A stretch of 64,000 bases of DNA. Source: an uncultured Chloroflexia bacterium (GTDB lineage: Bacteria; Chloroflexota; Limnocylindria; Limnocylindrales; CSP1-4). The notes under the pieces are model-generated. The model was not told the DNA's origin and did no database searches. It saw only the letters and a list, made by a program, of their open reading frames with translations. Both the position numbers and the translations under genes were made by a program. Below are positions 9,029 to 25,359 of this stretch, one piece after another. The stretch's first letter is position 1, and the number at the start of each line of letters is the position of its first letter. Where the stretch lies: assembly GCA_963790955.1 (NCBI GenBank), contig CAWBQM010000004.1, forward strand, positions 23,643-87,642, in the 5' to 3' direction.

Positions 9029-9661
9029 CTATTCGCGTCCGGCCGGGCGGCTGCCGGGCGCCTCGCCGATCGGGGCCGCCTGGTCGTTCGTCAGCTGCTC
9101 GGCGCGCAGGCCGGGCGCAACCTTGGGGGCCGGCAACGCGACCGTGTCACCGGCGATCTGCTCGGCACGCAGGCCGGGCGCGACCCTGGGCGCCGGCAGG
9201 ACCACGGTGTCGCCCGCGATCTGCTCGGCACGCAGGCCCGGCGCGACCCTCGGCGCCGCCAGCGGTGCCGTGACCGGTGCCGTCGTCGACGTCGTCGATG
9301 TGCCGACCCATGGCTCGGCCACGATGCCGACCGCGCCGATGGCGAGCACGCCGGCGAGGACGCCGGTCGCGATCAGTCGCTGCTCGACCTTGCGCGCGTC
9401 GATGGAGCGTGGGAAGTGCAGCGCGTACGCGTGCGCCTCGGTGTCGTCGCCCAGATCGAGCTCGACGATCAGTGCATCGGCCGACGCGGCGTGGCCGCTC
9501 GTGTCCGCCTCGGCGGTCGCGCGGATCCTGACCGACCGACCGGCGGCGGTCGCCTCGGCGATCTGGCGCAACCGCCCGGCATCCTGTGGGTCGAGGACCT
9601 CGACCTTCGCTCGTGTCCCGTCGTCGAACAGGATGTCGACGGTCGAATCTACCTGCATCAT
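9029..9661 (-). CDS. hypothetical single-pass membrane protein with three 24-aa tandem repeats
   Basis: There is an N-terminal soluble domain, one TM helix (LIATGVLAGVLAIGAVGIVA), and then the unit AAPRVAPGLRAEQIAGDTVVLPAP repeated three times (72-bp DNA repeats, about 9090..9260). The plus-strand alternative is an R-rich, junk-like ORF. Confidence 0.5.
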   Translation of the reverse strand: MMQVDSTVDILFDDGTRAKVEVLDPQDAGRLRQIAEATAAGRSVRIRATAEADTSGHAASADALIVELDLGDDTEAHAYALHFPRSIDARKVEQRLIATGVLAGVLAIGAVGIVAEPWVGTSTTSTTAPVTAPLAAPRVAPGLRAEQIAGDTVVLPAPRVAPGLRAEQIAGDTVALPAPKVAPGLRAEQLTNDQAAPIGEAPGSRPAGRE

Positions 9662-10137: not shown

Positions 10138-10422
10138 TCACCTCGAAAGCATGCGGAGGAGCGTGGCCCAAATCAACGCGAGGAGGAAGCCCAACATCAA
10201 GATCGGCACCCCTACAAAGAACGGTCCGATGATGGTATCCGGAACGACGCTCGACAACACATCGTCTCCGTTCATAAGGGCGAAAACGGGGCCGAAGGCA
10301 ACTGCACCCAGCCACGTCAGTACGGGCTGTCGCTTGCGACGCAGCTCACCGAATCGAAGAGACGCGAGCCGAGCCGGCGCGCGCCGCGCCTTGTCACCAC
10401 AAATGAAGTAGACGAGAGGCAT
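10138..10422 (-). CDS. small hydrophobic membrane protein (immunity-protein candidate)
   Basis: An approximately 94-aa protein with two predicted TM helices (MPLVYFICGDK ... VGVPILMLGFLLALIWATLLR) in the low-GC cassette. It overlaps the upstream gene by about 28 nt. Confidence 0.4.
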   Translation of the reverse strand: MPLVYFICGDKARRAPARLASLRFGELRRKRQPVLTWLGAVAFGPVFALMNGDDVLSSVVPDTIIGPFFVGVPILMLGFLLALIWATLLRMLSR

Positions 10423-11017
10423 GGTCTCGGTATTTGGCCCGCATGTCTTCGCGGCGATCAAAGAGGGCCCTCCCCTCGGACGCAACTGAGTCATTATCGG
10501 GCCGTTCGCCCGCGAGTATCCGATCAATGATGCCGCGATAGAGAGTCGCATAGTCCTTGACAAGTGCGGCCCATTCATCGTCGGGAGCGATCATGGATTC
10601 AATTCTCTCAATGATCGGAGGCGCCTTGGCAGCTACCGTTCGCTGCCAAGCCTCATAGGCTACGAGCGTCCTTGTTGCCGGATAGGTTGCCAGCAGCCGA
10701 TCCAACTGTTGGATCTGCCGATAGAATGCGCGATCAAACTCCCACTCGCCACTGTGCAAGCCGATCCGGATGCGAGTGCCGATGGAAGCTGGCAACCCTA
10801 CTACGTCGAGAAGCAGTACCGAAGCGGCGACCCCGAGGACGATATCCATGGCAGCGAAACGAACCTGGACAGTCGGCCAATGGACTGACACATCGATGAC
10901 GAAGCCCAACAGGAACACGCCAGCAATGACTGCCAGGACCCTCGACGCGCGTCTTCTAGCATCCCACGCTGCCGAAATGGCCGCGACAATGTAGAAAACA
11001 TCAGCAGGCACTGTCAT
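10394..11017 (-). CDS. membrane protein of unknown function (immunity-protein candidate)
   Basis: A 207-aa protein with three N-terminal TM helices followed by a soluble domain. It lies in the low-GC cassette, same strand and downstream of the rhs CT. Confidence 0.5.
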   Translation of the reverse strand: MTVPADVFYIVAAISAAWDARRRASRVLAVIAGVFLLGFVIDVSVHWPTVQVRFAAMDIVLGVAASVLLLDVVGLPASIGTRIRIGLHSGEWEFDRAFYRQIQQLDRLLATYPATRTLVAYEAWQRTVAAKAPPIIERIESMIAPDDEWAALVKDYATLYRGIIDRILAGERPDNDSVASEGRALFDRREDMRAKYRDHASRLLHLW

Positions 11018-11153
11018 CTGGGTACGGGTCGCAGTTGCGGCCGAAGCACTTGTGATTTTGATACACCCATCTGGGCGAGGTACTCTCGGGCACGTCGGAG
11101 CGCTTCATCGACCTCCGGCTTGGCTGGTTCCCCTAGATCGTCTCACCGGTGGG

Positions 11154-11450
11154 TCAGCGGTTTGGCCACCTCCCGAGCGCGGCCGACAACCCTCCAAGTC
11201 CAATCGCCAGGGTAGGTAACAGGACAACGGCTATCACCGGGATCGGCAGCCCGCGATCGAAGGCAACCGAAACGATGAACAAGGACGAAAAGAGTCCTGT
11301 GACGCCGAGCCCGAGCGCAACGAGCCGCATGAAGCCATGCGTGATCGGCATCCTCCTGGCGGCACGGACAGCGACCACCAGGAGCGCGCCAATCCAGATA
11401 CCCATCACGACCACAAGACCGACGAGGAACAACGCACTAGCTTGGATCAT
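11154..11450 (-). CDS. small polytopic membrane protein (immunity-protein candidate)
   Basis: A 98-aa protein with three predicted TM helices, in the low-GC cassette. Confidence 0.5.
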   Translation of the reverse strand: MIQASALFLVGLVVVMGIWIGALLVVAVRAARRMPITHGFMRLVALGLGVTGLFSSLFIVSVAFDRGLPIPVIAVVLLPTLAIGLGGLSAALGRWPNR

Positions 11451-11648
11451 CGCAGGACTTCCATTAGCCGCTGCGGCGTAGAACCATCAGAACCGAGGCG
11501 CTCTCGCCACTGATCGCGATCAACGCAAGGCTGAGTCCGCTAGACAGCGCGGCGGAGTCAGATCCCCAAACCCTCCGCCCTGCGTCACGGGGTCGACGGC
11601 GTCCGCGCCGAGGATACGCCGACGCTCGGGGCTTGACACTTTCATTCG

Positions 11649-11996
11649 TCAGGTTACGGCCAAGGCAACGATACCTCGCGCCAGCAAGAGCAGACCGCCG
11701 ATGATGCTAACGATGCCTAACCACCGGATGGGAACGCCCGCTACGATGCCCCACTCTGGAACGGTTAGCAACATCCCGGCGAGGAGAATGATCGTCGGGA
11801 CAGCGACCTGCTGGGCGGCTTGACCGGCGACCGTGATAAGGAGAGCAGAAGTTACGATCGCGAGACCACCTAAGGCAAGCGGTAGCTGATGTCCCCAGAT
11901 CAATCTGCCACGACGCCACAATATGAACCACCGCGCAACGATGGCCGTTGGCACAAAGAGGGCGACGAAGGCTGCGGCTGTTTCTGCACTTGTCAT
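11649..11996 (-). CDS. small polytopic membrane protein (first gene after the rhs toxin; immunity candidate)
   Basis: A 115-aa protein with four predicted TM helices. Its ATG overlaps the rhs TGA as ATGA (11993-11996), which suggests translational coupling. Confidence 0.55.
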   Translation of the reverse strand: MTSAETAAAFVALFVPTAIVARWFILWRRGRLIWGHQLPLALGGLAIVTSALLITVAGQAAQQVAVPTIILLAGMLLTVPEWGIVAGVPIRWLGIVSIIGGLLLLARGIVALAVT

Positions 11997-14371
11997 GGCA
12001 CTAGCACGGGTGGCGGGGCGGGGATTGGTGCGATCGGACCGATTGGCGGCACGGGAGGCAACGGGAAGTCAGGCCCGGACGCGTTACTCGCATCGGGCGC
12101 GTTACGGCGGTCCCCAGTGCAATAGAGAATCGACTGCTGCACGTATCCATAATTGTTGATAACCGCGTACCCATTGTAGGCGGCGTTCAGCAACAGCAGG
12201 ACATCGAGACCTGGGACAAGCTCTCCACCAAAGAGGAACGCGCCGAGGGATGCCGCCGCTGATCCAACTGCAACGAACTCAAGCACCACCTGGCCTGCAG
12301 CGTTTAGGCACTTGACCGCGATGGCTGGTGGGCTATCGCCCCCCAGCGCCTGTGACTTCTGTCCTGATGGGTCGATCACTCCCGTTGGATCGTTGACAGC
12401 GTAGGAGTAGCGGTTCAGCGTCTGACAGGCTCGTGGATTACCCGAGAACGTGTCTCTGCTCATGAAGCGTCCCAGGCTCGGATCGTAGTAGCGGGCCCGC
12501 AGGTACACGAGGCCGCTGGCGTCCGTGGGTTCGCCGGTGAAGCCGTACGGCTGGTCGGATGTACCGGTGGTGCTCGTCGGGGTGCCCCAGGCGTCGGTGC
12601 GGTAGGTGGCGGTGACCGCGCCTGAGGCGTCGGTGATCGATCTGGTCGAGCCCAGGCGATCGGTGTGGTAGACCTCGAGGGCTGCGCCCTGTACGGCGTA
12701 GGCGAGGCCCAGGCCGTACACGTACTTGCGCGTGCCGTCGTCGAGCGTGACCGGCAGGCTGCGGTTGGGGTCGGACACGTACGTGATCGTGGGATCGGTG
12801 CCGACCTGGCGGCTGACCCGGAGCCCGTCGCCGGCGTACGCGTATGTTTCGGTGGTGCCGGCCACGGTCGCGCTCGTGATGCGGTTGGCCTGGTCGTAGG
12901 CGAACGTGTCGGCGCCCTTGGCGGTCGTGTTGCCGGCCGCGTCGACGGTGAGGCTCATGGCGCCGGCGGCGGTGATCCGGTCGGCTCGGTCGTACGTGGA
13001 GCTCTGCGTGGTCCCATCGGTCACGCTCACTCGGTTGCCGACCGGATCGTAGCCATAGGTCGGTGCGCCGTCGGGCCCGAGGACCGAGGTCAGCCGGTAC
13101 AGGTGATCGTAGGCGTACGTCGAGGCGTCGAGCCCGGGCCCGCGCACGAAGATGTCGCTCGTGTTGTTCGTGTCGCCCGCGACGAGGTTCGACGCGACCG
13201 ACTGGAAGGCGACCGTGCCCGCGTCGGCGCTCAGCCACGGATCCTGGCTCGTGCCGTTGCCGGGCGTGCCGTCGGTCGCGATCGAGAAGCGGGTGTTGAT
13301 GCCCGACGCCAGATCGCGCACGAACACGTCCGAGCGGTTGTTCGTGTCGCCGGCGATGAGGTTCGTGGCATTGGAGGCGAAGCCGAGCTTCGAGCCGTCG
13401 GAGCTGAGCGATGGGTCGGAGCTGTCCTTGTTGCCCTGGACACCGGCGTCGCTGACCGAGGCCCGGATCGTGACCCCGGTCGCGAGCGTGTGCACGAAGA
13501 CGTCGGTCTTGGCGTTGGTGTCGCCGGTCACGAGGTTCGTGGCCGCCGACTCGAAGGCGAGCGTGCTGCCATCACCGCTGATCGCGCCATCGTCGCTGGC
13601 GCCGTTGGCCTGGCCGCCCGAGCTCGAGACCGAGACCCGCGTCGTCGTGCCCGCCACGCGGTCGTACACGAACATGTCGGTCACGCCGTTCGTGTCGCCG
13701 GCCACCAGGTTGGTCGCATCCGATTCGTACAGCACGTAGCGACCGTCGTCGCTGATCAGGGGCCGGTCGCTCTTGGCGTTCGACTGGCTGCCGTCGGAGG
13801 CGACCGAGACCCGCGTCGTCGTATTCGTCTGACGATCGCGCAGGAAGATGTCGGCCACACCGTTGGTGTCACCGCTGATCAGGTTCGTGGCGTCGGACTT
13901 GAACGCCACCCAGCGCCCGTCGGCCGAGAGGACCGGGTAGTACGACGCGCCGTTGGCCTGGGCGCCCGAGCTACTGACCGAGACCCGCTCCACCGCTCCG
14001 GTCACGAGATCCTTGACGAACGTGTCCCAGGCCGTGCCGTTGGTGTCGTTGGCGACGAGGTTACTGGCCTGGCTGCGGAACGCAGCGTAGCGGCCGTCGG
14101 CACTGATCGAGCCGTCGTCGGCACGCGCGTTGCCGATCGTCCCGTCGGACGCCGAGTCGGCGGCCACGATGCCACCGGTCAGGCGATCCTTGACGAACAC
14201 GTCGTCGCCGTTGTTCGTGTCGTTGGTGACGAGGTTGGACGCGGACGAGCGGAACGTGACGTATCGGCCGTCCGAGCTGATGAACGCCTTGTCCGATACG
14301 CCGTTGCCCTGGCCATGGGTCGAGGACTCGGACACGCGCTCGGTGCCGACCGTGGCGCCACCGGCGCCCAC
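11993..14371 (-). CDS. RHS-repeat polymorphic toxin with N-terminal PD40/TolB-like beta-propeller repeats and variable C-terminal toxin domain
   Basis: There are about nine repeats of the form DGRYVAF.S.ASNLV.GDTNG..D.FV.D (PD40-like), then YD repeats (YAYDHLYRLTSV, YGYDPVGNRVSV, FAYDQANRITS). The RHS core ends at RARYYDPSLGRFMSRDTFSG ... NDPTGVIDPSGQ. A hydrophobic CT of about 138 aa follows, lying in 57% GC DNA. The start is a GTG. The reading frame stays open upstream as far as the permease stop at 14519. Confidence 0.85.
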   Translation of the reverse strand: MGAGGATVGTERVSESSTHGQGNGVSDKAFISSDGRYVTFRSSASNLVTNDTNNGDDVFVKDRLTGGIVAADSASDGTIGNARADDGSISADGRYAAFRSQASNLVANDTNGTAWDTFVKDLVTGAVERVSVSSSGAQANGASYYPVLSADGRWVAFKSDATNLISGDTNGVADIFLRDRQTNTTTRVSVASDGSQSNAKSDRPLISDDGRYVLYESDATNLVAGDTNGVTDMFVYDRVAGTTTRVSVSSSGGQANGASDDGAISGDGSTLAFESAATNLVTGDTNAKTDVFVHTLATGVTIRASVSDAGVQGNKDSSDPSLSSDGSKLGFASNATNLIAGDTNNRSDVFVRDLASGINTRFSIATDGTPGNGTSQDPWLSADAGTVAFQSVASNLVAGDTNNTSDIFVRGPGLDASTYAYDHLYRLTSVLGPDGAPTYGYDPVGNRVSVTDGTTQSSTYDRADRITAAGAMSLTVDAAGNTTAKGADTFAYDQANRITSATVAGTTETYAYAGDGLRVSRQVGTDPTITYVSDPNRSLPVTLDDGTRKYVYGLGLAYAVQGAALEVYHTDRLGSTRSITDASGAVTATYRTDAWGTPTSTTGTSDQPYGFTGEPTDASGLVYLRARYYDPSLGRFMSRDTFSGNPRACQTLNRYSYAVNDPTGVIDPSGQKSQALGGDSPPAIAVKCLNAAGQVVLEFVAVGSAAASLGAFLFGGELVPGLDVLLLLNAAYNGYAVINNYGYVQQSILYCTGDRRNAPDASNASGPDFPLPPVPPIGPIAPIPAPPPVLVP

Positions 14372-14518
14372 CGCGGACAGGACGTTGCCGACCGGGTCGA
14401 GCGTATACGCGTGCTGCTCGAAGACGGTCGAGCCGAGCTTGTGGACGATCGAGGTCAGCCGGGCGTCATTGTCGTAGCCGTACGTGGCCGTCGTCGTTTC
14501 TAGGCCCAGCCACGTTGG

Positions 14519-15490
14519 TTAGGTTGGCCGTCGGCGGTTGACGACGATGGCGGCGCCGACGAGACCGACCAAACCAACCGACCCGAATAGCGCGATGTCG
14601 TACAAGATCCACTGGAGGGCTTCGGACTGCGGAATCCCCAACGCAACGGGCTCGTAGCCGCGGTCCCCCAGCCACTGGTCGCTGCTTTCTTGAGGAGCCA
14701 CGCCGGATGGCACAAGCGCGAGTGCAGCCTCCTCGTTGAGAATGCTTCCATCGGGTGCGCGCCAACCCTGGTTAGTTTGCACTGCAGCGACCAGGTTCGA
14801 GTTCTGGTCGCCGATCACAGTCGCCGGTCGAGTCTGGATCCACGCTTGATGGGCCAGACTGGCTCCATAGTCAAGCGCTAGCACGAGGGCGACCCCGACG
14901 ATGAACGCTGGCAACGTGCGGCCCATGACCGCGCCAAGCAGCAATCCCACACAGAATCCCGCCAACGCTCGTCCGAGGACGATCGGACCATGGAGGGTCA
15001 TGTCATTGACGGCGGTATTGAGCCACGGCTGGCGCGTCGCCTCGAGGCGATCGGCCGCGATCGCCGCGAAGGCCACGGCAAGACCCAGCAGCACGAGCAC
15101 CGGCACCACCTGTCGCGCGAGCCATCGCAGGCGCGAAGGGGCGAGGAACCAGGCGGTCTGCGCGGTCCGCGCTTCGAGCTCGCGGCCCACGAGCGGCACG
15201 CCGCCGAGGAGGCCGACCGCGAACGGCAGGACCGCCATCGCGGCGAAGACCTTGCCGGCCTCGGACTCGTTGATCTGCGCGAACGCGTTGACCGGACCGT
15301 AGCAGTCGCCCGCACTCTGAGGGCCGGCGCTCAGCCACTGCTGGAAGCAGCCGGCCGGGACATGGACCGCGAGCAGCCGCTCGTTGACGAGCAGCGCGGC
15401 CGCCCCCAGGACGAGCGCCGCGAGCGCGGCGGCGCCGACCTCGAAGCGGTGCAGCTTGAGCGTGAGTCGGACCGATCGGAGCCGCATCAC
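14519..15490 (-). CDS. ABC-2 type transporter permease (module 1)
   Basis: A 323-aa protein with six TM helices and a large extracytoplasmic loop. It is a paralog of permeases at 23236..24192, 18926..19873 and 19879..20955, and it overlaps the ATPase stop. Confidence 0.8.
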   Translation of the reverse strand: MMRLRSVRLTLKLHRFEVGAAALAALVLGAAALLVNERLLAVHVPAGCFQQWLSAGPQSAGDCYGPVNAFAQINESEAGKVFAAMAVLPFAVGLLGGVPLVGRELEARTAQTAWFLAPSRLRWLARQVVPVLVLLGLAVAFAAIAADRLEATRQPWLNTAVNDMTLHGPIVLGRALAGFCVGLLLGAVMGRTLPAFIVGVALVLALDYGASLAHQAWIQTRPATVIGDQNSNLVAAVQTNQGWRAPDGSILNEEAALALVPSGVAPQESSDQWLGDRGYEPVALGIPQSEALQWILYDIALFGSVGLVGLVGAAIVVNRRRPT

Positions 15491-16341
15491 GCGGCCTCCT
15501 CCCCCGACCGGCCCGGGCGGCCGCGAGGTACCCGAGCACGACCTCCTCGAGGGTTGCCGGCCGGCCGATCTCGGCGCCGTGCACGAGGGCGAGCGGCTCC
15601 CCGCTCGGGACCGGCGAAGCTGCCGATCGCCGCCCGCCCGTCGAGCGCGGCCGCGTCGACGGTGCGATGCTCGGCGCGGGCCGACGCGACGTCACGGTCG
15701 AGCAGTAGCCGCCCGCCCGAGAGCACGACGAGCCGATCGCACGCCTGCTCGACGTCGGTCACGATGTGCGACGAGAGCAAGACCGTCGAGCCGTTGGCCC
15801 GGACGTCCTCGACGAGCACGGTCAGGAAGTCGCGCCGGGCGAGCGGGTCGAGGTTCGCGAGGGGCTCGTCGAGGAGCAGCACCGGCGCCCGCGTCCCGAG
15901 CGCAAGCGCGAGCGAGACCTGGGCCTGCTCGCCTCCGGACAGATCGCCGATCGGCCGGTTGCCGGAGAGGCCGACGTCGTGGATGCGCGCGAGCGCGTGG
16001 TCGCGGTCGAACGTCGGGCGGCTCACCCGCGCGAGATCGAGATGGTCGTCGATCTTGAGCCCGCGATACAGCGCGACGCCCTGGGGCACGTAGCCGACCG
16101 AGCCCACCGCCCGGGCTCGGTCGCGCTGGGGATCGACGCCGGCGACGAGGACGCGACCCTCGTCCGGACGCTCGAAGCCCAAACATGCCCGAATCAGTGT
16201 CGACTTGCCGGCGCCGTTGGGGCCGACGAGGGCGGTGATCGAGCCGCCTGGCACGGTCAGCGACACGTCCCGGCATGCCCACGGCCGGGAGCGTCGGTAG
16301 CGGCGTCCGAAGTGCTCCGTGACGAGCGGTCGTTCTTCCAC
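15487..16341 (-). CDS. ABC transporter ATP-binding protein (module 1; locally frame-altered C-terminus)
   Basis: Walker A (GPNGAGKST), ABC signature (LSGGEQ), Walker B (LLLDEP). About 90% identical to module 2 except for a roughly 30-aa C-terminal stretch read in another frame (an extra G at ~15610, compensated near ~15510). Confidence 0.8.
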   Translation of the reverse strand: MEERPLVTEHFGRRYRRSRPWACRDVSLTVPGGSITALVGPNGAGKSTLIRACLGFERPDEGRVLVAGVDPQRDRARAVGSVGYVPQGVALYRGLKIDDHLDLARVSRPTFDRDHALARIHDVGLSGNRPIGDLSGGEQAQVSLALALGTRAPVLLLDEPLANLDPLARRDFLTVLVEDVRANGSTVLLSSHIVTDVEQACDRLVVLSGGRLLLDRDVASARAEHRTVDAAALDGRAAIGSFAGPERGAARPRARRRDRPAGNPRGGRARVPRGRPGRSGEEAA

Positions 16342-16544
16342 GAGCCGAGTTCCTAATGCGCCAACGGTCGAGTGCGGGCCGGGCTCGATCGAGAGACCAT
16401 CCTGGCCGGGCGGCCGCTGCCGGCTAGAAGCATTCTGGGTCTGCGAATCCCTGCTATCAGCTCCAGCGCGTGAGGGAGTGAGGTCCTCCGGGCATGCCGC
16501 ATGAGTGCGTGGGGCGTGGCTGCCGTAAGACTACCGCAGCAGGG

Positions 16545-16931
16545 TCACGTACTTGGACCCTGAGGACACGTTGATGTGTATGTCCATTTGAAGGAACTGA
16601 CTGTGTCGTTGTACGAACCGTAGTTGCTGGAGTATGTGTTTCCAGAGGCGCTGTATGGGCTGGGAAGCTGGTTCGAATATCCAGCGTCACGATATTGATG
16701 GATCCAGTAATGACAGTTCGAGTTATACACATGGAAGCTGCTGAAGCAATCGTTGAGATCGTATGGCCAATCCAGCCCCGATCCGGAGCAATGTGGGAAT
16801 GCCACCTGGCTCAAGTCGCTCTCACCATACGGGTAGCAATAGGTAACCGAGTTGCCGCCGTATCCTGTATTCTCCCAGAAGGTCACATATGCCCCGCTGC
16901 AAGAAGCTGCAGCGGAAGGCACAAGAACGAG
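16545..16931 (-). pseudogene. small Cys-rich secreted betagamma-crystallin-like protein, copy 1, 3' (mature-domain) part, separated from its signal peptide by IS256
   Basis: The mature domain is CSGAYVTFWENTGYGGNSVTYCYPYG ... CHYWIHQYRDAGYSNQ ... STCPQGPST (six Cys, Greek-key-like W-x4-Y-x-G motif), in 50% GC DNA. Its native signal peptide lies on the other side of the IS (18372..18458). Confidence 0.6.
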
Positions 16932-18371
16932 TGGCGTCCCCCCGAGTGGTGGGATTTGAGCGAGGCTCCTGACCTGCGCTGACATCGCGCAGCGAGGGGG
17001 CCACCGGTGTGATTCTCAGCGTGTCTCTTAGCCGGAGCACGTGAGGTTCACCGATGGCCCTGTCACAGTCTGCCCTGTCCGAGCTGCTCGACGCGATCCG
17101 CGCGGGCGGCAGCGAGGACGTCCTGCGCGAGGCGATGACACTCGTCCTCCAGGAGCTGATCGAGCTCGAGGCGGCCCAGGCGATCGGCGCCGGCCGGTAC
17201 GAGCGGACCGACGAGCGCTCGACCCACCGCAACGGCAGCCGCAGTCGGCTCCTTTCGACCAAGGCCGGCGACGTCGAGCTGCGCATCCCCAAGCTCCGCC
17301 AGGGCTCGTTCTTCCCGGCGCTCCTGGAGCCGCGGCGGCGGATCGACCGAGCCCTGTGGGCGGTCGTCATGGAGGCCTACGTCCACGGCGTCAGCACGCG
17401 CAAGGTCGACGACCTGGTGACCGCCCTCGGGATCGACGCCGGGATCAGCAAGAGCGAGGTATCCCGGATCTGTGGCGAGCTCGACACGGTCGTGGCGACG
17501 TTCCGTGACCGACCGCTCGGTCACACCCGCTTCCCGTACGTCTTCCTCGACGCGACGTACGTCAAGGCCCACGACGGCGCGTCGGTGGTCAGCAAGGCGA
17601 TCGTCGTCGCGACCGGGGTGACCGCGAAGGGCGATCGTGAGGTCCTCGGGCTCGCGGTCGGCGACAGCGAGGATGGCGCCTTCTGGACCGCGTTCCTGCG
17701 CTCGCTCCGGGCGCGCGGCCTGGCCGGCGTGCGGCTTGTCATCAGCGACGCCCACGAAGGCCTCAAGGCGGCGATCGGGGCCGTCCTCCTGGGTGCCGCG
17801 TGGCAGAGGTGCCGGGTCCACTTCCTGCGCAACGTGCTGACCCGGATCCCCAAGGGCAGCGCCGAGATGGTGCTGGCTGCGATCCGAACCATCTTCGCCC
17901 AGCCCGACGCGGCATCGGTCAGCGAGCAGCTTGACGAGATCGCGGAGCGACTCGAGCCTCGTTTCCCGGTCGTCGCCGCGATGCTCGCCGAGGCCAAGGA
18001 GGACGTCACGGCGTTCACCGCGTTCCCGGTCGGCCACTGGCGCAAGGTCTGGTCGACGAACCCGTTGGAGCGGGTCAACCGCGAGATCAAGCGGCGGACT
18101 GACGTGGTCGGCATCTTTCCGAACGAAGCGGCGATCCTGCGGCTGGCTGGTGCGGTCCTGCTCGAGGTCCACGACGAGTGGGCGATCGCCGACCGGCGCT
18201 ATCTGGCCGAAGGCTCGATGGCGAGGCTTGACCCGCCCGCCGAAGATGGTCAGACCAAGGAGGTGGAGCGAGCGAAGACCGTCCTGCTGGCGTCCTGAGC
18301 GACGCCTTCGACACCGTCGCTGAGCATCACGACGGACCGCTCATTTCCCACCACTCCAGCGGCCACGGCCC
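16932..18371 (+). mobile_element. IS256-family insertion sequence (about 1440 bp) with 8-bp target-site duplication AAGAACGA
   Basis: Imperfect terminal inverted repeats (left gtggcgtccccccGAGTGGTGGGATTTGAGCG; right reverse-complement gggccgtggccgctgGAGTGGTGGGAAATGAGCG). AAGAACGA is duplicated at 16924..16931 and 18372..18379, whereas the intact paralog at 25741 has a single copy. Confidence 0.8.
17054..18298 (+). CDS. IS256-family (Mutator-like) transposase
   Basis: A 414-aa protein with the Transposase_mut signature (FPYVFLDATYVKAH ... VISDAHEGLKAAI ... WQRCRVHFLRN). Confidence 0.9.
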   Translation: MALSQSALSELLDAIRAGGSEDVLREAMTLVLQELIELEAAQAIGAGRYERTDERSTHRNGSRSRLLSTKAGDVELRIPKLRQGSFFPALLEPRRRIDRALWAVVMEAYVHGVSTRKVDDLVTALGIDAGISKSEVSRICGELDTVVATFRDRPLGHTRFPYVFLDATYVKAHDGASVVSKAIVVATGVTAKGDREVLGLAVGDSEDGAFWTAFLRSLRARGLAGVRLVISDAHEGLKAAIGAVLLGAAWQRCRVHFLRNVLTRIPKGSAEMVLAAIRTIFAQPDAASVSEQLDEIAERLEPRFPVVAAMLAEAKEDVTAFTAFPVGHWRKVWSTNPLERVNREIKRRTDVVGIFPNEAAILRLAGAVLLEVHDEWAIADRRYLAEGSMARLDPPAEDGQTKEVERAKTVLLAS

Positions 18372-18458
18372 AAGAACGAATAGCCATGCCGAAAGAAACA
18401 ACGAGCCGACAACCACAACATGCGGACGCCGTCGGCGTCGCTGTGCGAGATTGGACAT
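18372..18458 (-). pseudogene. 5' fragment (signal peptide) of the betagamma-crystallin-like gene, copy 1
   Basis: It encodes MSNLAQRRRRRPHVVVVGSLFLSAWLFVL. This is contiguous in frame with LVPSAAASCSG ... at 16931 if the IS is removed. Confidence 0.5.
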
Positions 18459-18925
18459 CCTCGAGTCCTCCTCCTGTGAAGGTCCACGGTCGTCGCACGC
18501 GAACTCGAGTATACTACGCGTGTCAAGAGTCACTGAACCTGCCAGTACAGTTGCTAACGACCTGTGGCTAGCTCCCCGCCCCCGGAGCTCTCGTCATGTT
18601 GCCACGGGAATCGCCCTTCCGAGATCCACGGACTCAGTTTGTGGCCTCTATACCCTTCTGCCTGACCCATTCATCGACGAGGCAAATGTCAAGGGCTCAG
18701 GTCGCGGACGCACGTGGACTTGAGATGGGAAACTGGTTCGATCGCAGTGTCGACGGCAGCCACTTCAGATCGGCCAGATGATCCCGACAGGCAGACGGAT
18801 CGTCCACCCCTCTCTGCCAGCCGCGATGGGATCAGCGCTCACCGAAGTCGCCACGGCGCGAGGTCAGGATCGGCAAAGCGGCCCTCTCTGGATGTCCGTC
18901 GCACGTCCTTCACGCCAAGTACACC

Positions 18926-19873
18926 TCAGCCTGGTCGGGACCTGCTCAGCCCGACCACCGACGCCACGAGGAGCACGATCGCGCCGCCAGCAAGGCTCGC
19001 GCTCTCACGGAACACCGAGTCCGGATAGCGGCTCGCGTCCCAGCCGGCGTTGAGCTGGCGATAGCCGCGAGCCGAGTACCAGGCGATGAAAACCGCGTCG
19101 TCGTTGACGAGGACACCCTGGGCGTTGAAGCGCGGAAAGCCATTCTCGCGGGCCACATCCTGCGCCAGGTGAAAGGAACCGTCGGGCGCCTCGAGCGCGA
19201 CACTCCACTGGTACGAGCCGGGCGTGACGGCCGCAGGGTTGCCGGGATCAGCCGGATCACCGAGTACCTGCATGGGCATGAGGTAGCCGACGCCACTGGC
19301 CCACTCGAGTCCGTTGTACAGGATCACGACGGCAACCGCGGTGACGAGGAGCGCCGGCAGGATACGGCGCACGAGGACCCCCGCCAGTACCGCGATGCCG
19401 AACGCCGCCAGGCCGCGTGCCACGAGCGGCGCCCCGCGCCATTGATCGCCGTAGAAGTTGAACGTGGGATCGATGCGCTGCCACTCCCACAGGAGCCGGT
19501 TGGCGGCGAGCGCCGCCGGCACGAGCAGCACGACCACGAGCACGAGCGCGGGCACCAGGCGCCAAATGAACCAGCGCAGCCGACTGCCCGACAGTGACCA
19601 GGCCAGGCGACCGGTGCCGGTCTCGAGCTCGCGCGCGAGGAGCGGCGCGCCGAGCAGGCCGCCCACGACGAACGGCAGCGTCGCGAGGAGCGGGTAGAGC
19701 CAGGTATCGAGTGGGTTGCCGATCCGGTAGAAGGCGCTCGTGGTGGGACAGATCGTGTCGACGCAGTTGTCCGCGACCCGGATGTTGCGCAGGAGCATGG
19801 TCACGACGATCGTCGCGCCGGTCACCCCGATCGCCGCCCCGAGCGCGCCCAGGAGCTCCGGCCGGCCGACGCC
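18926..19873 (-). CDS. ABC-2 type transporter permease (module 3, second permease)
   Basis: Paralogous to the module 1 and 2 permeases (LARELETGTGRLAWSLSGSRLRW ...). The N-terminal 160 aa of the 477-aa ORF is R-rich junk; the real start is near MTSGVGRPELL. Confidence 0.7.
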   Translation of the reverse strand, partial: GVGRPELLGALGAAIGVTGATIVVTMLLRNIRVADNCVDTICPTTSAFYRIGNPLDTWLYPLLATLPFVVGGLLGAPLLARELETGTGRLAWSLSGSRLRWFIWRLVPALVLVVVLLVPAALAANRLLWEWQRIDPTFNFYGDQWRGAPLVARGLAAFGIAVLAGVLVRRILPALLVTAVAVVILYNGLEWASGVGYLMPMQVLGDPADPGNPAAVTPGSYQWSVALEAPDGSFHLAQDVARENGFPRFNAQGVLVNDDAVFIAWYSARGYRQLNAGWDASRYPDSVFRESASLAGGAIVLLVASVVGLSRSRPG

Positions 19874-19878
19874 CGAGG

Positions 19879-20955
19879 TCATACGCCAGCCCAGCCAGAC
19901 GCTGCTCCGACGCCAGCCGCCGCGGTTTGGTTCGGCGGCCGTGGCGCCGTAATCGAGCGCCGCGCGTCGAGCTCGAGTCCGATCCCGGGAGCGGGTCGGC
20001 GGCGGCGGACCGCGACGAGCGCGAGGAGGCCGGCCAGGAGCGCGACGCCGCCTGTCGCCGCCGCCTCGCGCGCCTCGACCTCCGGATAGTGGACGCCGCT
20101 GATGCCCAGGAACACCCGGTGCCAGCCGACATGGAACAGCCACAGCGCGTAGCCCGGCGAATCGATGACCTGCGCCTCGGGTGGTCGCAGCGGCGCCGAC
20201 TCGTCGAACGTGAGCTGGGTCCCGTCGGGCAGCTCGAAGCCCTCGCCGAATGCGAGCGGCACGGCCTGGGTCTCCTGGTCGACCTCGGCGCGGTCGACCG
20301 CCTCTCGGGGCAGCCAGTACGGGCGCACATTCGCCGCGAGCGCGAGCCCGACCAGACACAGCCCGCCCGCGAGGAGCAGCGCCGGCAGGGTTCGGCCCAG
20401 CACGACCCCGGCCGCGAGCCCCAGGCCGAACGCGACCAGGCCGCGCACGACGACGAGGATGCCCCGCGAGCCGACGTCGTAGAAGGACTGCGACGGATCG
20501 AACTGGGGATAGATCGCGGCCTCGAGCCGATCGCCCGCGAGCGCCGGGCCGACGAGCAGGAGCACGACCAAGAGGGCCGCCGGCCAGACCCGCCAGGCCA
20601 GCCAGCGCACGCGCGACGCGGTCAGCGACCAGGCCAGTGGTGCGCTCCGGCGCTCGAGCTCGCGGGCCACGAGCGCCGGGCCATAGAGCAGGCCGATGAC
20701 GATCGGGATGAGCGACGCCGCGAACAGGAGCGGCGACCCGAACGACTGCGAGAGGTTGTAGAAGTCGACCACCTCACACGTGCGCAGGCCCGGGCACTGA
20801 CCGGCCCGGATCGCGTCGAGCTGCGCGGCGACCGCGAGCATGCCCAGGGTCAGCGCCGCCGAGAGGCCGATGCCGGCGGCGATCTCGAAGCGCGCGGTCC
20901 GCCAGAACAGCTGCACGCTCCGGGTCATGGCACCGAGAGCCTCAGGCGCCGTCGG
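19879..20955 (-). CDS. ABC-2 type transporter permease (module 3, first permease)
   Basis: Start at MTRSVQLFWRTARFEIAAG. It has six TM helices and a large external loop, and overlaps the ATPase stop by about 14 nt. Confidence 0.7.
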   Translation of the reverse strand, partial: PTAPEALGAMTRSVQLFWRTARFEIAAGIGLSAALTLGMLAVAAQLDAIRAGQCPGLRTCEVVDFYNLSQSFGSPLLFAASLIPIVIGLLYGPALVARELERRSAPLAWSLTASRVRWLAWRVWPAALLVVLLLVGPALAGDRLEAAIYPQFDPSQSFYDVGSRGILVVVRGLVAFGLGLAAGVVLGRTLPALLLAGGLCLVGLALAANVRPYWLPREAVDRAEVDQETQAVPLAFGEGFELPDGTQLTFDESAPLRPPEAQVIDSPGYALWLFHVGWHRVFLGISGVHYPEVEAREAAATGGVALLAGLLALVAVRRRRPAPGIGLELDARRSITAPRPPNQTAAAGVGAASGWAGV

Positions 20956-21847
20956 GGGCCGCGGCCGCCGCCATCGCCGGTGCGGCGAGGTAGCCCAGCA
21001 CGAGCTCCTCGAACGAGGGCTCGCGCCCGATGTCCGTGGCGCGCACGAGGGCGAGCTCGACGTGATCGGCCGGGAAGCGCCCGACCGGGACGAGGTCGGC
21101 GGGCAGGTCGCCGGCCGGCACGACGCGGTGCTCGGCTCGGGCGGTGGCGATCGGGGCATCGAGTCGCACCCGGCCGGCGACGAGCACGACCAGGTCCTCA
21201 CAGGCGTCCTCGATGTCGCGCACGATGTGGGAGCTGATGACGACCGTCGCAGCCGATGCGGCGGCCTCACGCCGGAGCACGTCGAGGAACTCCCGTCGCG
21301 CGAGTGGATCGAGGCTCGCGAGCGGCTCGTCGAGGAGCAGGATGCGCGCCTCCGCGGCGAGCACGAGCGCGAGTCCGAGCTGGGCGCGCTGGCCACCCGA
21401 CAGCTCGTCGGCCCGGCTGCGGCGGGGCAGGCCCAGCTCGTGGACCCGGGCCAGGGCGGCGTCGCGGTCCAATCCCCGGCGCAGGTACGCCGCCAGATCG
21501 ACGTGCTCCTCGACGCTCAGCTCGTCATACAGCGAGGGTTGCTGGGGGATGTACCCGAGCGAGCGGATCGCCTCGCCCCGGCGGCGCCACGGATCGACCC
21601 CGGCCGCCGACACCTGGCCGCGGGTCGCGTGCTCGAAGCCCAGCCAGGTGCGCAGGAGTGTCGACTTGCCGGCGCCGTTGGGTCCGACCAGGGCCACGAT
21701 CCGACCCGGTGCGATCGCGAGGCTGACGTCCTCGAGCGCCCAGTGCCCGCGCCGGTAGCGCTTCCACAGGCCGCTCGCGGCCAGGGCGGGCTGTGCGGCC
21801 AGAGCAGTCGACGTGGGCGCCATCACCGAAGACGGTACCAGCCGCAA
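20942..21847 (-). CDS. ABC transporter ATP-binding protein (module 3)
   Basis: Walker A GPNGAGKST, signature LSGGQRAQ, Walker B LLLDEP. The C-terminal tail FEELVLGYLAA is shared with the module 2 ATPase. Confidence 0.8.
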   Translation of the reverse strand: MRLVPSSVMAPTSTALAAQPALAASGLWKRYRRGHWALEDVSLAIAPGRIVALVGPNGAGKSTLLRTWLGFEHATRGQVSAAGVDPWRRRGEAIRSLGYIPQQPSLYDELSVEEHVDLAAYLRRGLDRDAALARVHELGLPRRSRADELSGGQRAQLGLALVLAAEARILLLDEPLASLDPLARREFLDVLRREAAASAATVVISSHIVRDIEDACEDLVVLVAGRVRLDAPIATARAEHRVVPAGDLPADLVPVGRFPADHVELALVRATDIGREPSFEELVLGYLAAPAMAAAAAPDGA

Positions 21848-22149
21848 AGCCCAGAACTACGTCCCCACTGCGGGCAGAGGCTCGTCGAGTAGATTGAGCT
21901 CACGGTGTTGTCGAACCCCGTCGGCATCGTGTTGCGCGTGGTCGGCCCACACACATTGAACGAGGAGCCAGTCCCAAGCGAGCCTGTCCAGAGTACAAAC
22001 CCGTGCCCAGTGACGTTCGTCGACTTCATGCTTGAGATGTTGTTGTCGTACGGTGACGACAGGGAACCCATGCTCGTCCCGTAGTCCATCAGTAGCTCGG
22101 ATCCGGTCAGGTTCGTTCCGGTCCAGAATTGGCCTTCGTTCGCAGCCAA
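21823..22149 (-). CDS. divergent paralog of the betagamma-crystallin-like small protein (module 3), apparently lacking a signal peptide
   Basis: FVLWTGSLGTGSSFNVCGP and FDNTVSSIY are similar to FWENTGYGGNSVTYCYP and YNDTVSSFKW of the other copies. It sits in 50% GC DNA. Its 5' end abuts the truncated integrase at 22137, and its stop overlaps the probable ATPase start (21823). Confidence 0.4.
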   Translation of the reverse strand: MAANEGQFWTGTNLTGSELLMDYGTSMGSLSSPYDNNISSMKSTNVTGHGFVLWTGSLGTGSSFNVCGPTTRNTMPTGFDNTVSSIYSTSLCPQWGRSSGLCGWYRLR

Positions 22150-22505
22150 CGGAAGAACTGCTGGAGACTGCGGTAGGGGTTCGCCGCGGAGGCAGGACGG
22201 AGACGCGTGAGCTGGTCGGCGATGAAGGCGTCCACGTGCTCACGGCGGATCGCCGCCACGGTCCGGGGCATGCCCTCCTCGGCCAGGAACGCGTCGAAGC
22301 GGCCCACAGCGTCGAAGTAGGCGTGGATTGTGGCCGGCGTCCGGTCGCCCGCGTGGACGTGACGACGAAGGAGGCGCCGTTCGCGGCGAGGTCGTCGACT
22401 GCGGTAGACTCGGCCGCGCCGACCTGGCTGGGCGGCGTCGGATGGTCGTTGATCGAGCGTCTGGGCATCACCCACGTCGATCGACAGTTCGAGCGCCATG
22501 GTCAA
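22137..22505 (-). pseudogene. truncated, frameshifted tyrosine-integrase N-terminal fragment (diverged copy of int at 36232..37191)
   Basis: [30 protein letters not shown] ... followed, in another frame, by [32 protein letters not shown] ... SLQQFFRWL. This is about 85-90% aa identity to int residues 1-109, then it stops. Confidence 0.7.
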
Positions 22506-22554
22506 GCCGGGGAGGCCGGCGCCAGTTAGTGCTCTAACTGAGCGTGAACCTCGT

Positions 22555-22591
22555 GGGCCCGTAGCTCAACGGTAGAGCAAGTGACTCTTAA
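22555..22591 (+). other. partial tRNA-Lys copy (5' half up to the anticodon loop); att-like junction
   Basis: It is identical to nt 1-37 of the tRNA at 37280 (GGGCCCGTAGCTCAACGGTAGAGCAAGTGACTCTTAA). The 89-nt int-proximal spacer is also conserved. Confidence 0.7.
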
Positions 22592-23235: not shown

Positions 23236-24192
23236 TCAGGTTGGCCGTCGGCGGTTGACGACGATGGCGGCGCCGACGAGACCAACGAAACCAACCGACC
23301 CGAACAGCGCAATGTCGTACAAGATCCATTGGAGGGCTTCGGACTGCGGAATCCCCAACGCAACGAGCTCGTAGCCGCGGTCCCCCAGCCACTGGTCACT
23401 GCTTTCTTGAGGAGCCACGCCGGGTGGCACAAGCGCGAGTGCTGCCTCCTCGTTGAGAATGCTTCCATCGGGTGCGCGCCAGCCCTGGTTAGTTTGTACT
23501 GCAGCGACCAGGTTCGAGTTCTGGTCGCCGATCACAATCGCCGGTCGAGTCTGGATCCACGCTTGATGGGCCAGACTGGCTCCATAGTCAAGCGCGAGCA
23601 CGAGGGCGACCCCGACGATGAACGCTGGCAACGTGCGGCCCATGACTGCGCCAAGCAGCAATCCCACACAGAATCCCGCCAACGCTCGTCCGAGGACGAT
23701 CGGACCATGGAGCGTCATGTCATTGACGGCGGTATTGAGCCAGGGCTGGCGCGTCGCCTCCAGCCGGTCGGCCGCAAGCGCGGCGAACGTCACCACGACG
23801 CCCAGCAGCACCAGCACGGGCGCCACCTGGCGAGCCAGCCAGCGCAAGCGCGAGCCGGACAGGGACCACGCGGTCTGCGCGGTCCGGGCCTCGAGCTCGC
23901 GGCCGACGAGTGGCACGCTGCCGAGCAGCCCGACGAGGAACGGCAGGACGGCCATGGCCGCGAAGACCTTGCCCGCCTCGGACTCGTTGATCGTGGCGAA
24001 CGCGTTGACCGGGCCATAGCAGTCGCCGGCCTGATCGGGCCCGGCGCTGAGCCACTGCTGGAAGCAGCCGGCCGGGACGTGCACCGCGAGCAGGCGCTCG
24101 TTCACGAGCAGCGCGGCCACCCCGAGGACGAGCGCCGCGAGCGCGGCGGCGCCGACCTCGAAGCGATGCAGCTTGAGCGTGAGCCGGATCGA
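23236..24192 (-). CDS. ABC-2 type transporter permease (module 2)
   Basis: It starts at MLRSIRLTLKLHRFEV and is about 90% identical to module 1. The longer ORF 23236..25065 in the track is an alternative-frame artefact across the ATPase. Confidence 0.8.
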   Translation of the reverse strand, partial: SIRLTLKLHRFEVGAAALAALVLGVAALLVNERLLAVHVPAGCFQQWLSAGPDQAGDCYGPVNAFATINESEAGKVFAAMAVLPFLVGLLGSVPLVGRELEARTAQTAWSLSGSRLRWLARQVAPVLVLLGVVVTFAALAADRLEATRQPWLNTAVNDMTLHGPIVLGRALAGFCVGLLLGAVMGRTLPAFIVGVALVLALDYGASLAHQAWIQTRPAIVIGDQNSNLVAAVQTNQGWRAPDGSILNEEAALALVPPGVAPQESSDQWLGDRGYELVALGIPQSEALQWILYDIALFGSVGFVGLVGAAIVVNRRRPT

Positions 24193-24203
24193 GCGCAGCA
24201 TCG

Positions 24204-25157
24204 TCACGCGGTCTCCTCCCGGCGGCCGGTTCGCGCGGCCGCGAGATATCCGAGTACGACCTCCTCGAGCGTGGTCGGGCGGCCGATCGGGCCATCGCGC
24301 ACGAGGGCGAGCGGCTCCCCGCTCGGACCGGCGAAGACACCGATCGCCACCCGCCCGTCGAGCGTGGCCGCGTCGACCGTGCGGTGGTCGGCCCTGGCCG
24401 CCGCCGTGTCGACGTCGAGCAGCACCCGCCCGCCCGAGAGCACGACGAGTCGATCGCAGGCCTGCTCCACGTCGGTCACGATGTGCGACGAGAGGAGCGC
24501 GGTCGAGCCGTTGGCGCGGACGTCCTCGACGAGCACGGTCAGGAAGTCGCGCCGGGCCAGCGGATCGAGGTTCGCGAGCGGCTCGTCGAGCAGCAGCAGC
24601 GGGGCCCGGGTGCCGAGCGCAAGCGCCAGCGAGACCTGGGCCTGCTCGCCGCCCGACAGGTCGCCGATCGGCCGGTTCGCGGTCAGCCCGACCGCTCGGA
24701 TGCGCGCCAGCGCGTGCTGGCGGTCGAACGTCGGGCGGCTGACGCGGGCCAGATCGAGATGGTCGTCGATCGTGAGCCCGCGGTACAGCGCGCCGCCCTG
24801 GGGCACGTAGCCGACCGAGCCCACCGCCCGGGGACGATCGCGCCGGGGATCGATGCCGGTGACGAGCACCCTGCCCTCGTCCGGGCGTTCGAAGCCGAGG
24901 CATGCCCGGATGAGCGTCGACTTGCCGGCGCCGTTGGGGCCCACGAGGGCGGTGATCGAGCCGGCCGGCACGGCCAGCGACACGTCGCGGCACGCCCACG
25001 GCCGGTTGCGTCGGTAGCGGCGCCCGAAGCGCTCGGCGACGAGCGGTGGATCCTGCACGAGCCAAGTTCCTAATGCGCCACGATCCGGAGAGACCATCTC
25101 GGCCGCGGGGCCGCTGTCGGCCAGAAGCATTCTGCGTGTGTGACCGAAGGCCTGCAA
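24204..25157 (-). CDS. ABC transporter ATP-binding protein (module 2)
   Basis: Walker A, signature and Walker B are all intact. The C-terminal approximately 80-aa extension (SGEPLALVRDGPIGRPTTLEEVVLGYLAA) is conserved. Confidence 0.8.
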   Translation of the reverse strand: MQAFGHTRRMLLADSGPAAEMVSPDRGALGTWLVQDPPLVAERFGRRYRRNRPWACRDVSLAVPAGSITALVGPNGAGKSTLIRACLGFERPDEGRVLVTGIDPRRDRPRAVGSVGYVPQGGALYRGLTIDDHLDLARVSRPTFDRQHALARIRAVGLTANRPIGDLSGGEQAQVSLALALGTRAPLLLLDEPLANLDPLARRDFLTVLVEDVRANGSTALLSSHIVTDVEQACDRLVVLSGGRVLLDVDTAAARADHRTVDAATLDGRVAIGVFAGPSGEPLALVRDGPIGRPTTLEEVVLGYLAAARTGRREETA

Positions 25158-25359
25158 TCAGCCCCAGCGTGTCTGAGTGAACTCCCCCGAGGATGCCGCA
25201 TGAGTGCGTAGCGCGGTGGCTGCCGTAAGGGCCTGTAGCCGAATTCCTCCGATCGATCGCGCCGGATCTGGCCCGAGATGCCGCTCTCCGGCATTTGAGC
25301 CGCGCGGTGGATCGTGCTCGGCGAATTCGACCACAGACCCTAAGACTACCGCAGCAGGG

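Follow-up and report, generated by a model that had tools for sequence, protein, structure and literature searches.

A 5'-truncated rhs gene behind an ABC permease stop codon in a tRNA-Lys island of an uncultured Chloroflexia bacterium

How does a gene for a large Rhs protein come to begin, with no recognizable start, directly at the stop codon of an unrelated transporter gene? The question is raised by a 64-kb stretch of DNA from an uncultured Chloroflexia bacterium (assembly GCA_963790955.1, contig CAWBQM010000004.1, positions 23,643 to 87,642), here called the window, which has 68% G+C and carries all relevant genes of its locus of rhs and ATP-binding cassette (ABC) transporter genes on the minus strand. 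A previous inspection of these letters, the sequence-only reading, had noticed that the rhs frame is open and YD-like right up to the stop codon of the upstream ABC permease, and that a duplication boundary falls on that same stop; it had proposed that rhs was joined here to the ABC module by recombination and thereby lost its 5' trafficking region. Following up on these observations, we consider it likely that the rhs fragment is the 3' remnant of a gene for a ~1,900-aa Sec-secreted Rhs/YD-repeat polymorphic toxin, which would now be a pseudogene or an orphan-like toxin-immunity cassette.

The rhs reading frame and its longer relatives

An 841-codon open frame begins at the codon directly after the permease stop, ends at stop 11993 and shares one frame with the permease. 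Public annotation calls a 792-aa product from GTG 14371 (P0001, an identical database protein), and this GTG is the first ATG, GTG or TTG of the frame; the 49 codons preceding it contain none of the three, and the only near-cognates among them are CTG (three times) and ATC (once). A codon scan and translation thus bore out that the frame is open as far as the permease TAA (14521-14519) with no earlier canonical start, and the translation previously given for the codons before the GTG, PTWLGLETTTATYGYDNDARLTSIVHKLGSTVFEQHAYTLDPVGNVLSAV-GTG, was reproduced as written. The frame is YD-like from ~14497 (TTATYGYD) on, but not in the 21 nt before, which read PTWLGLE. In database alignments, the first residue of the extended open reading frame (ORF) with rhs homology is 9 by BLASTP and 6 by the phmmer envelope, corresponding to ~14497-14494, and the first 7-8 codons after the stop (14518-14498) matched no rhs relative in protein or DNA alignments. 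The ~41 rhs-like codons that follow are ~61% identical to those of the related locus L017 (a hand count on translations), compared with 62-63% over the whole alignment, and they are the stump of a lost YD shell. Orthologs that start at the same GTG, with upstream sequence not conserved, had been named as the pattern that would speak against a truncation; instead, relatives start elsewhere and the protein sequence before the GTG is conserved. We looked for Shine-Dalgarno sequences before GTG 14371 and before the CTG codons and found none, whereas permease 1 has GGGGGAGGAGG. The suggestion that a non-canonical start is used is disfavoured by the lack of a Shine-Dalgarno sequence before the CTG codons and by the first 7 codons, which are not rhs-like. 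Between the permease and the rhs fragment we found no promoter-like or terminator-like site, and the junction itself showed no hairpin or terminator (fold z-score -0.98). GTG 14371 is merely the first start that was available to the gene caller.

The extent of the loss can be read from longer relatives. An exhaustive HMMER search returned P0387, an intact protein of 1879 aa encoded on a mobile-element-like contig (L025 8001-13640, with a resolvase, AAA_25 and many small ORFs), whose residues 1016-1732 are 61% identical to residues 6-722 of the window ORF. Its upstream part contains a Sec-type signal peptide (MIPRRHVVAALLAVFTFQTGAVVQPPRASASA), DUF6531 at 223-298 and YD repeats that continue to the window's start point, an upstream shell of ~760 aa of YD. 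The order in the relatives is signal peptide, carbohydrate-binding module (CBM)-like domain, DUF6531, ~760 aa of YD, PD40 in a linker of the shell, ~180 aa of YD, RHS core, variable toxin and immunity gene. By this comparison the window gene lacks ~1,018 N-terminal residues; what survives is the 3' part, roughly the last 45% of the gene, cut ~1,000 codons in. The N-terminal trafficking region and the complete shell (DUF6531 and ~1,000 aa of YD) are present in P0387 and L017 and absent from both the ORF and the window, in agreement with the earlier remark that the present protein has no signal peptide or secretion domain. At L017, a 1024-aa ORF (DUF6531 and YD shell) ends ...TVATYGYDNATRLTAIVN-TAA and the same frame goes on LGSSIIDQRLYGLDPAGNVLSVGGG... 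into the 1231-aa PD40-Rhs ORF P0047 (the pair spans L017 898-7806). The sequence across this TAA is colinear with the window's TTATYGYDNDARLTSIVHKLGSTVFEQHAYTLDPVGNVLSAVGAGG and matches the codons before the GTG, and the single in-frame TAA sits 17 codons 3' of the window's breakpoint. P0013 (942 aa; L002 250-4380) aligns from its residue 82 at window position 14494 onward with 62.6% identity, and is itself cut by an IS3-family element 81 codons 5' of the window's breakpoint. The continuity of P0387, L017 and P0013 across the breakpoint supports the earlier proposal of a recombination between the ABC module and rhs that cost rhs its 5' trafficking region.

A tblastn search with the 1024-aa N-terminal ORF of L017 found no missing rhs 5' part in the window and gave only cross-matches to the retained YD repeats; if the event was a simple deletion, the missing part need not exist elsewhere. 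Broken rhs genes are common among the relatives. Small rhs remnants are found at L018 and L020, an rhs array with an IS110-family element at L022/L023 and an isolated 454-aa rhs fragment at L024. Three independent disruptions (in the window, L017 and P0013) fall within ~100 codons just before the PD40 insertion, a clustering that may reflect either ascertainment bias or a preferred module boundary. No close orthologues were found in GTDB representative genomes, a set that excludes the window's own genome, and the best match there is a Chloroflexota metagenome-assembled genome with 56% identity in the core only. When the N-terminal YD region was used in a word-indexed protein search, no protein longer than 621 aa was returned and even L017's own ORF escaped detection, which makes this search uninformative on intact relatives.

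The retained part has a recognizable Rhs architecture. YD (RHS) repeats were detected by PF05593 (E=1.7e-6) and TIGR01643, with a PF25023 TEN_YD-shell match precomputed for P0001, and the YD shell segment is 50-70% identical to many RHS core proteins. TIGR03696 matches residues 642-720 (E=1.8e-20, 73.2 bits against a cutoff of 32.5), and the RHS core ends in a DPxG(L)-type motif, ...NDPTGVIDPSGQ. Beyond it, profile searches gave no family match for the C-terminal domain or for the 115-aa membrane protein encoded next, and the C-terminal domain is unrelated to those of P0013, P0387 and P0047. We presume that this hydrophobic domain is a membrane-acting toxin; the 115-aa protein, encoded in the expected position of an immunity gene, may be the immunity protein. 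Another small polytopic membrane protein (98 aa, 11154-11450) is encoded 3' of this candidate and could be an additional or orphan immunity gene. For residues ~60-460, which form the PD40 propeller, the AlphaFold model has a predicted local distance difference test score (pLDDT) above 90. The PD40-less relatives P0245 and P0243 read ...YTLDxVGNRTxV, followed by a ~20-aa linker and then TYGYDRLYRLT, and by comparison with them the propeller has been inserted where a short linker would otherwise join two YD repeats. A full-text literature search for 'PD40' with 'RHS repeat' found no paper.

The proteins most similar to the C-terminal 261 aa (P0121-P0240; loci L022-L024) are mostly 300-450 aa long and start at ...TYGYDRLYRLT, the same linker that holds the PD40 block here. 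Swappable or orphan cassettes of this Rhs subfamily, whose members are largely annotated as Chloroflexota, may therefore usually have their 5' boundary at this linker.

The ABC modules, the position of the joint and the surrounding island

The window contains two paralogous ABC modules, of which module 1 precedes rhs (Table 1), and a third, more distant one at 18926-21847. An ABC_tran ATPase with Walker and signature motifs is present; that of module 3 (PF00005 E=1.6e-27) is ~72% identical in DNA, and this module has two tandem permease paralogues (19879-20946 and 18926-19876) where modules 1 and 2 have one each. Permease 1 had no match in Pfam or NCBIfam and the multi-pass character of the permeases was judged by eye, while a permease paralogue of module 3 matches ABC2_membrane_2 weakly (E=0.0048, below cutoff). 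The stop codon next to rhs is, to judge from its relatives, the native end of this permease family. The same C-terminus is found in module 2, a 48% identical permease at L021 ends in ...VVNRRRPMP and one permease of module 3 in ...LSRSRPG. L021, a single 1.2-kb contig, was the only one returned by a metagenome scan with the permease; it confirms the native C-terminus and gives no useful downstream context. Neither module 2 nor the L021 permease locus has rhs downstream.

Whether the boundary of the duplication falls on this stop depends on what is meant by boundary. The sequence GTCAACCGCCGACGGCCAACCT occurs exactly twice (14521-14542 and 23238-23259; none expected by chance), and in self-BLAST and alignment the repeat starts at 14521/23238, with near-identity ending at the T of the stop. 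Beyond that T, module 1 continues T-AACCAACG (TAA) and module 2 T-GAGGTACA (TGA), the next bases being AACC versus GAGG. As the end of near-identity the boundary noticed earlier is therefore real, but it does not hold as the limit of homology, since similarity probably goes on to ~14500. The identity of modules 1 and 2 is a mosaic, with 97-98% at 14521-15016, 81-91% at 15017-16400 and 96% at 16523-16930, and codon differences that are synonymous only amount to 27% in permease codons 1-150 versus 7.5% in codons 151-324. Such a drop is expected from recent gene conversion and not from protein-level constraint. While the mosaic itself is seen directly, we infer gene conversion as its cause: the modules look like old paralogues, ~86% identical, in which the permease 3' halves were most likely homogenised recently, the sharp boundary being the end of the tract. 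The tract would end where the coding sequence ends because the flanks have diverged and alignable homology stops there, so that no special event is needed at the stop codon.

The joint between module and rhs is best sought in the 21 nt after the stop. The heptamer GGCCTAG in this spacer has three copies in 128 kb (both window strands), two of which lie 14 and 10 nt after the paralogous permease stops, and the 44 nt after each stop align with a local score of 12, where shuffled sequence or random pieces of the window gave 6.5 +/- 1.4 (p about 0.003-0.01). Given the rarity and paralogous position of the heptamer and the local alignment score, module-derived sequence seems to extend to ~14500; the spacer probably stems from the 3' flank of the ABC module, now diverged, and the true joint probably lies at ~14500-14497, ~22 nt past the stop and not on it. 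The joint is thereby placed within about 5 nt, perhaps at a GACGGC microhomology. An independent Logan assembly of run ERR11718636 (L001), which covers 10236-14995 at 99.96% identity, is identical at the junction and the TAA, and both of its differences from the window lie away from the junction.

Two other candidates, one for the joint and one for its cause, were rejected. The 10-mer CGCCGACGGC (14533-14524, at the permease 3' end) has eight copies in 128 kb, and in the rhs relatives L025, L002 and L017 it encodes F-A-D-G, 42 nt 5' of the first shared YD codons, compared with a distance of 44 nt in the window. As a joining microhomology it does not hold, with the intervening sequence only ~43% identical to rhs (hand count) and with module 2 sharing the bases after the 10-mer; the spacing coincidence is unexplained and probably due to chance. 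The IS256-family element of module 1 was discarded as the cause of the joint, since it lies 2.4 kb off and has the 9-bp target duplication of a simple insertion.

Module 1 shows several signs of decay. Its IS256-family element splits the signal-peptide region of a gene for a small Cys-rich protein, and in-silico excision restores MSNLAQRRRRRPHVVVVGSLFLSAWLFVVLVPSAAASCSG... at this site. Genes for such Cys-rich, Tyr/Asn/Ser-rich secreted proteins (...CSGAYVTFWENTGYGGNSVTYCYPYGESDLS...) precede both module 1 (16545-16985) and module 2 (25360-25800) and are 96% identical; the protein had no Pfam or PDB match. The module 2 copy has a +1 frameshift in the signal-peptide region, and both copies look inactivated unless this indel is a sequencing error. 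In addition, ATPase 1 has, within 15490-15620, a +1 insertion and a compensating -1 deletion ~105 nt apart that put ~36 codons near its 3' end out of frame, destroying the motif TLEEVVLGYLAAAR that is kept in module 2 and L021. Taken together, module 1 appears to be decaying.

The locus lies in a variable island that extends from ~9 kb to 37.3 kb and adjoins tRNA-Lys. An intact tRNA-Lys(CTT) at 37280-37354 has an adjacent tyrosine integrase (36232-37191), and 22144-22591 contains a degraded integrase 5' end (86% identical) together with 37 nt of the tRNA, from its 5' end to the anticodon loop. Such an arrangement suggests that two integrative elements lie one behind the other at tRNA-Lys, the older integrase being truncated at 22144, with module 2 inside the newer element and module 1, module 3 and the rhs fragment beyond the truncated integrase. 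A 1,489-bp direct repeat of 99.7% identity (26043-27530 and 33712-35199) carries a Replic_Relax (PF13814) gene, and its first copy abuts an IS30-like transposase (HTH_38 and rve, 27455-29029). The island resembles an integrative conjugative element of actinomycete type. Its flanks are housekeeping in character, with CarB and MMPL on the left and sugar-utilisation genes on the right. In the alpha-L-rhamnosidase region (44632-46338 / 47378-50248), a 568-aa ORF with only the N-terminal immunoglobulin (Ig) and N domains adjoins a complete 956-aa rhamnosidase paralogue and may be another truncated duplicate. Short tandem repeats are found at 9095-9283 (three 63-nt copies) and 59745-59874 (a ~58-nt repeat).

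Table 1. Positions of the rhs fragment, the ABC modules and associated features in the window.
Feature	Position	Strand	Basis
Candidate immunity gene, 115-aa polytopic membrane protein	11649..11996	minus	ATG overlaps rhs TGA (ATGA)
Annotated rhs ORF, 792 aa from GTG 14371	11993..14371	minus	identical to P0001
Variable C-terminal domain, ~121 aa, hydrophobic, Pro-rich tail	11996..12358	minus	hydropathy; no family match
RHS repeat-associated core, ends ...NDPTGVIDPSG/Q	12359..12595	minus	TIGR03696
C-terminal YD-repeat shell segment, ~180 aa	12596..13138	minus	PF05593, TIGR01643
PD40 beta-propeller block, seven repeats of ~58 aa, 174-nt period	13139..14356	minus	PF07676, 174-nt DNA repeat family, AlphaFold
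rhs-homologous codons 5' of annotated start, ~41, TTATYGYDNDARLTSIVHKLGSTVFEQHAYTLDPVGNVLSA	14372..14497	minus	tblastn, BLASTP to P0013 from 14494; aligns L017, P0387 ~1018-1060
21-nt spacer, PTWLGLE in rhs frame, GGCCTAG at 14506-14500	14498..14518	minus	no homology to rhs relatives; heptamer position; local alignment
ABC-2-type permease of module 1, 323 aa, C-terminus ...AAIVVNRRRPT, stop TAA 14521-14519	14519..15490	minus	translation
ABC ATPase of module 1, 284 aa	15487..16341	minus	PF00005 E=6e-28; translationally coupled to permease
IS256-family insertion in module 1, transposase 17054-18298	16931..18370	plus	PF00872 E=1.6e-139; 9-bp target duplication CAAGAACGA, inverted repeats
ABC module 2: permease 23236-24207, ATPase 24204-25157, stop TGA 23238-23236	23236..25157	minus	paralogous to module 1
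Repeat tract, 88%	14521-16529 vs 23238-25229		self-BLAST
Repeat tract, 96%	16523-16930 vs 25338-25745		self-BLAST
Repeat tract, 81%	18367-18526 vs 25733-25898		self-BLAST

Origin of the fragment and rival explanations

The alignments and the codon scan establish that the rhs gene is truncated and lacks initiation signals; the event behind this state can be proposed from the arrangement of the locus. An illegitimate joint, ~22 nt beyond the native stop of ABC permease 1, would link the 3' flank of that gene to rhs codon ~1,018. Most simply, one deletion within the decaying stack of integrative elements at tRNA-Lys would have reached from shortly after permease 1 into an adjacent rhs gene, taking with it the signal peptide, DUF6531 and the larger part of the shell. 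Rhs proteins enclose their toxin in a complete YD shell, sealed at the N-terminal end, and depend on the N-terminal trafficking region for export. The fragment, having lost the signal peptide, DUF6531 and ~760 aa of shell, should thus be able neither to close an Rhs cocoon nor to leave the cell. Because there is no terminator between the ABC operon and the rhs fragment, transcription would probably occur only by read-through from that operon. We infer that the fragment is not otherwise expressed and that its 3' end represents a toxin and immunity pair; at most it would confer immunity or be a source of sequence for exchange with a full-length rhs by recombination.

Several observations weigh against this interpretation. 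The deletion model is not proven, and no undeleted sister locus was found among GTDB representatives. The 841-codon frame is fully open and its codons before the GTG show no less conservation than those after it, so either the truncation is recent or the frame is kept under selection by something. The ATGA overlap of the immunity-like gene with the rhs stop normally implies translational coupling to a translated rhs. Several real genes here likewise have no clear Shine-Dalgarno sequence, and weak internal initiation may occur at GTG 14371 or 14335. The similarity after the permease stop, on which the position of the joint depends, amounts to ~20 nt (p about 0.003-0.01) and one rare 7-mer. Finally, the YD, core and C-terminal parts of the AlphaFold model have a pLDDT below 50, which makes it uninformative on the residual shell.

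The open frame would also fit an orphan cassette that is silent but kept for its function: a full-length rhs in the genome or on an incoming element could reactivate it by homologous recombination, and until then its immunity gene would protect against kin that deploy this toxin. Frame, core and C-terminal domain are undamaged, as is the overlapping membrane-protein gene, rhs homology for recombination extends over more than 2.4 kb, P0387 is found on a mobile-element-like contig as the window fragment is in an island region at tRNA-Lys, and the mechanism has been demonstrated for orphan rhs-CT in Salmonella (PMC3967940). We nevertheless regard this as somewhat unlikely: the 64-kb window contains no full-length or N-terminal rhs, the fragment is not 3' of a main rhs, which is the defining layout of orphan modules, and the neighbouring genes are visibly decaying. 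A more elaborate form of the idea, that the fragment is a recombination-ready cassette (PD40, shell end, core, toxin and immunity) of Sec-secreted Rhs toxins carried by mobile elements, or that read-through gives an intracellular PD40-Rhs protein with a new role, is speculative and has in our view a low probability. If the former were true, an incoming full-length copy such as that on the L025 contig could recombine anywhere along the 2.4 kb, swapping toxins; under either form, the three breaks within ~100 codons in the window, L017 and P0013 would mark a preferred module boundary and not ascertainment. It is very unlikely that the 792-aa protein from GTG 14371 is a genuine functional short protein (PD40, partial shell and toxin), perhaps co-expressed with or exported by the ABC transporter. 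A long intact ORF with a host-like G+C content at third codon positions (GC3) of 0.87, the lack of a terminator between the rhs ORF and the ABC operon and the call of P0001 as a protein in public annotation would agree with such a product. However, relatives start elsewhere, with homology extending 41 codons further 5' and then over ~1,018 residues in P0387, there is neither a Shine-Dalgarno sequence nor a signal peptide, ABC module 1 is itself damaged, and module 2 and L021 have no rhs downstream. Moreover, a shell without DUF6531 and ~760 aa of YD should be unable to enclose a toxin.

Other explanations concern the junction itself. The ABC module could have been copied into an intact rhs gene by duplicative insertion of 23238-25898, the boundary at the stop being one end of the insert and the rhs 5' half being expected beyond the other. 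The sharp repeat ends (14521/23238 and ~18526/25898) and near-identity that stops exactly at the stop codon are what such an insertion would leave, but module 1 borders, above 18526, on the end of ABC module 3 and not on rhs, and no rhs 5' sequence is found anywhere in the window. The middles of the modules are 9-19% diverged with high synonymous divergence, as in old paralogues with converted ends and not in a fresh copy, and weak homology appears to run past the stop; we therefore judge an insertion to be improbable. That the junction is an assembly or sequencing artefact, or that an error in the TAA hides a permease-Rhs fusion or a longer rhs, is extremely unlikely. Several indel-type frameshifts nearby and the location of the rhs ORF in the permease frame might raise this suspicion, yet the independent Logan assembly reproduces junction and TAA base for base, the permeases of module 2 and L021 stop at the same or nearly the same residue, a shared frame has a 1-in-3 chance and the codons after the stop match neither partner.

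Significance and comparison with known systems

A truncated rhs is a well-known kind of gene, and the finding is real but ordinary. Its practical bearing is on annotation: P0001 would be the gene caller's truncation of a pseudogene, unfit to serve as a complete Rhs toxin or to define an N-terminus. In addition, a repeat boundary that seems to fall on a stop codon can arise by gene conversion between old paralogues, with the true joint ~20 nt away. The Rhs subfamily with PD40 in its shell, on mobile elements of uncultured high-GC soil-type bacteria, is uncharacterised and might repay structural study, an interest that belongs to the intact relatives and not to the window locus.

Compared with the full-length PD40-Rhs proteins (P0387 and the L017 pair), the window copy shares ~61% identity over the retained region and the order YD-PD40-YD-RHS core-C-terminal domain. 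It differs in lacking the first ~1,018 residues (signal peptide, CBM-like domain, DUF6531 and most of the shell) and in having a different C-terminal domain and immunity-type gene. In the TcB-TcC (BC) cocoon of ABC toxin complexes and in other Rhs cages, the YD shell is reportedly interrupted by a beta-propeller, and the RHS core is said to end in a DPxG-type autoproteolysis site that releases the encapsulated C-terminal toxin. A beta-propeller within the YD shell is also found here (PD40 flanked by YD repeats, pLDDT above 90), a likeness of arrangement. Unlike in TcB/TcC systems, no TcA-like gene was seen in the window, and the shell is incomplete here, so that encapsulation cannot operate. 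The ABC modules, for their part, resemble ABC-2-type exporter modules of genomic islands in their ABC_tran ATPase and coupled permease, in the presence of three paralogous modules and in conversion mosaicism between two of them. They differ from the usual ones in that the permease family has no Pfam model and that modules 1 and 2 each follow a gene for a small Cys-rich secreted protein. We found no evidence at the locus for a functional link between the ABC modules and rhs.

Orphan modules and Rhs pseudogenes truncated at the N-terminus are both recognised classes (PMC3967940; bioRxiv 10.1101/2025.05.08.652813). With the truncated or orphan rhs-CT/rhsI modules of Enterobacteriaceae (Koskiniemi et al. 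2014, PMC3967940), the window fragment shares part of the shell, the core, a variable C-terminal domain and a downstream immunity-type gene, and, like these orphan rhs genes, it is 5'-truncated and without signals for translation initiation and export. In contrast to orphan rhs-CT (PMC3967940), it is not located 3' of a full-length main rhs but has an ABC permease as its 5' neighbour. It is also much larger than typical orphans, with ~830 codons that include the whole PD40 propeller, and was apparently made by a joint to unrelated DNA and not by C-terminal displacement. Unlike the Enterobacteriaceae systems, moreover, the host has 68% G+C and the parent protein would be Sec-secreted and not linked to a type VI secretion system. 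The window fragment also fits the class of N-terminally truncated pseudogenes among the length classes of bioRxiv 10.1101/2025.05.08.652813.

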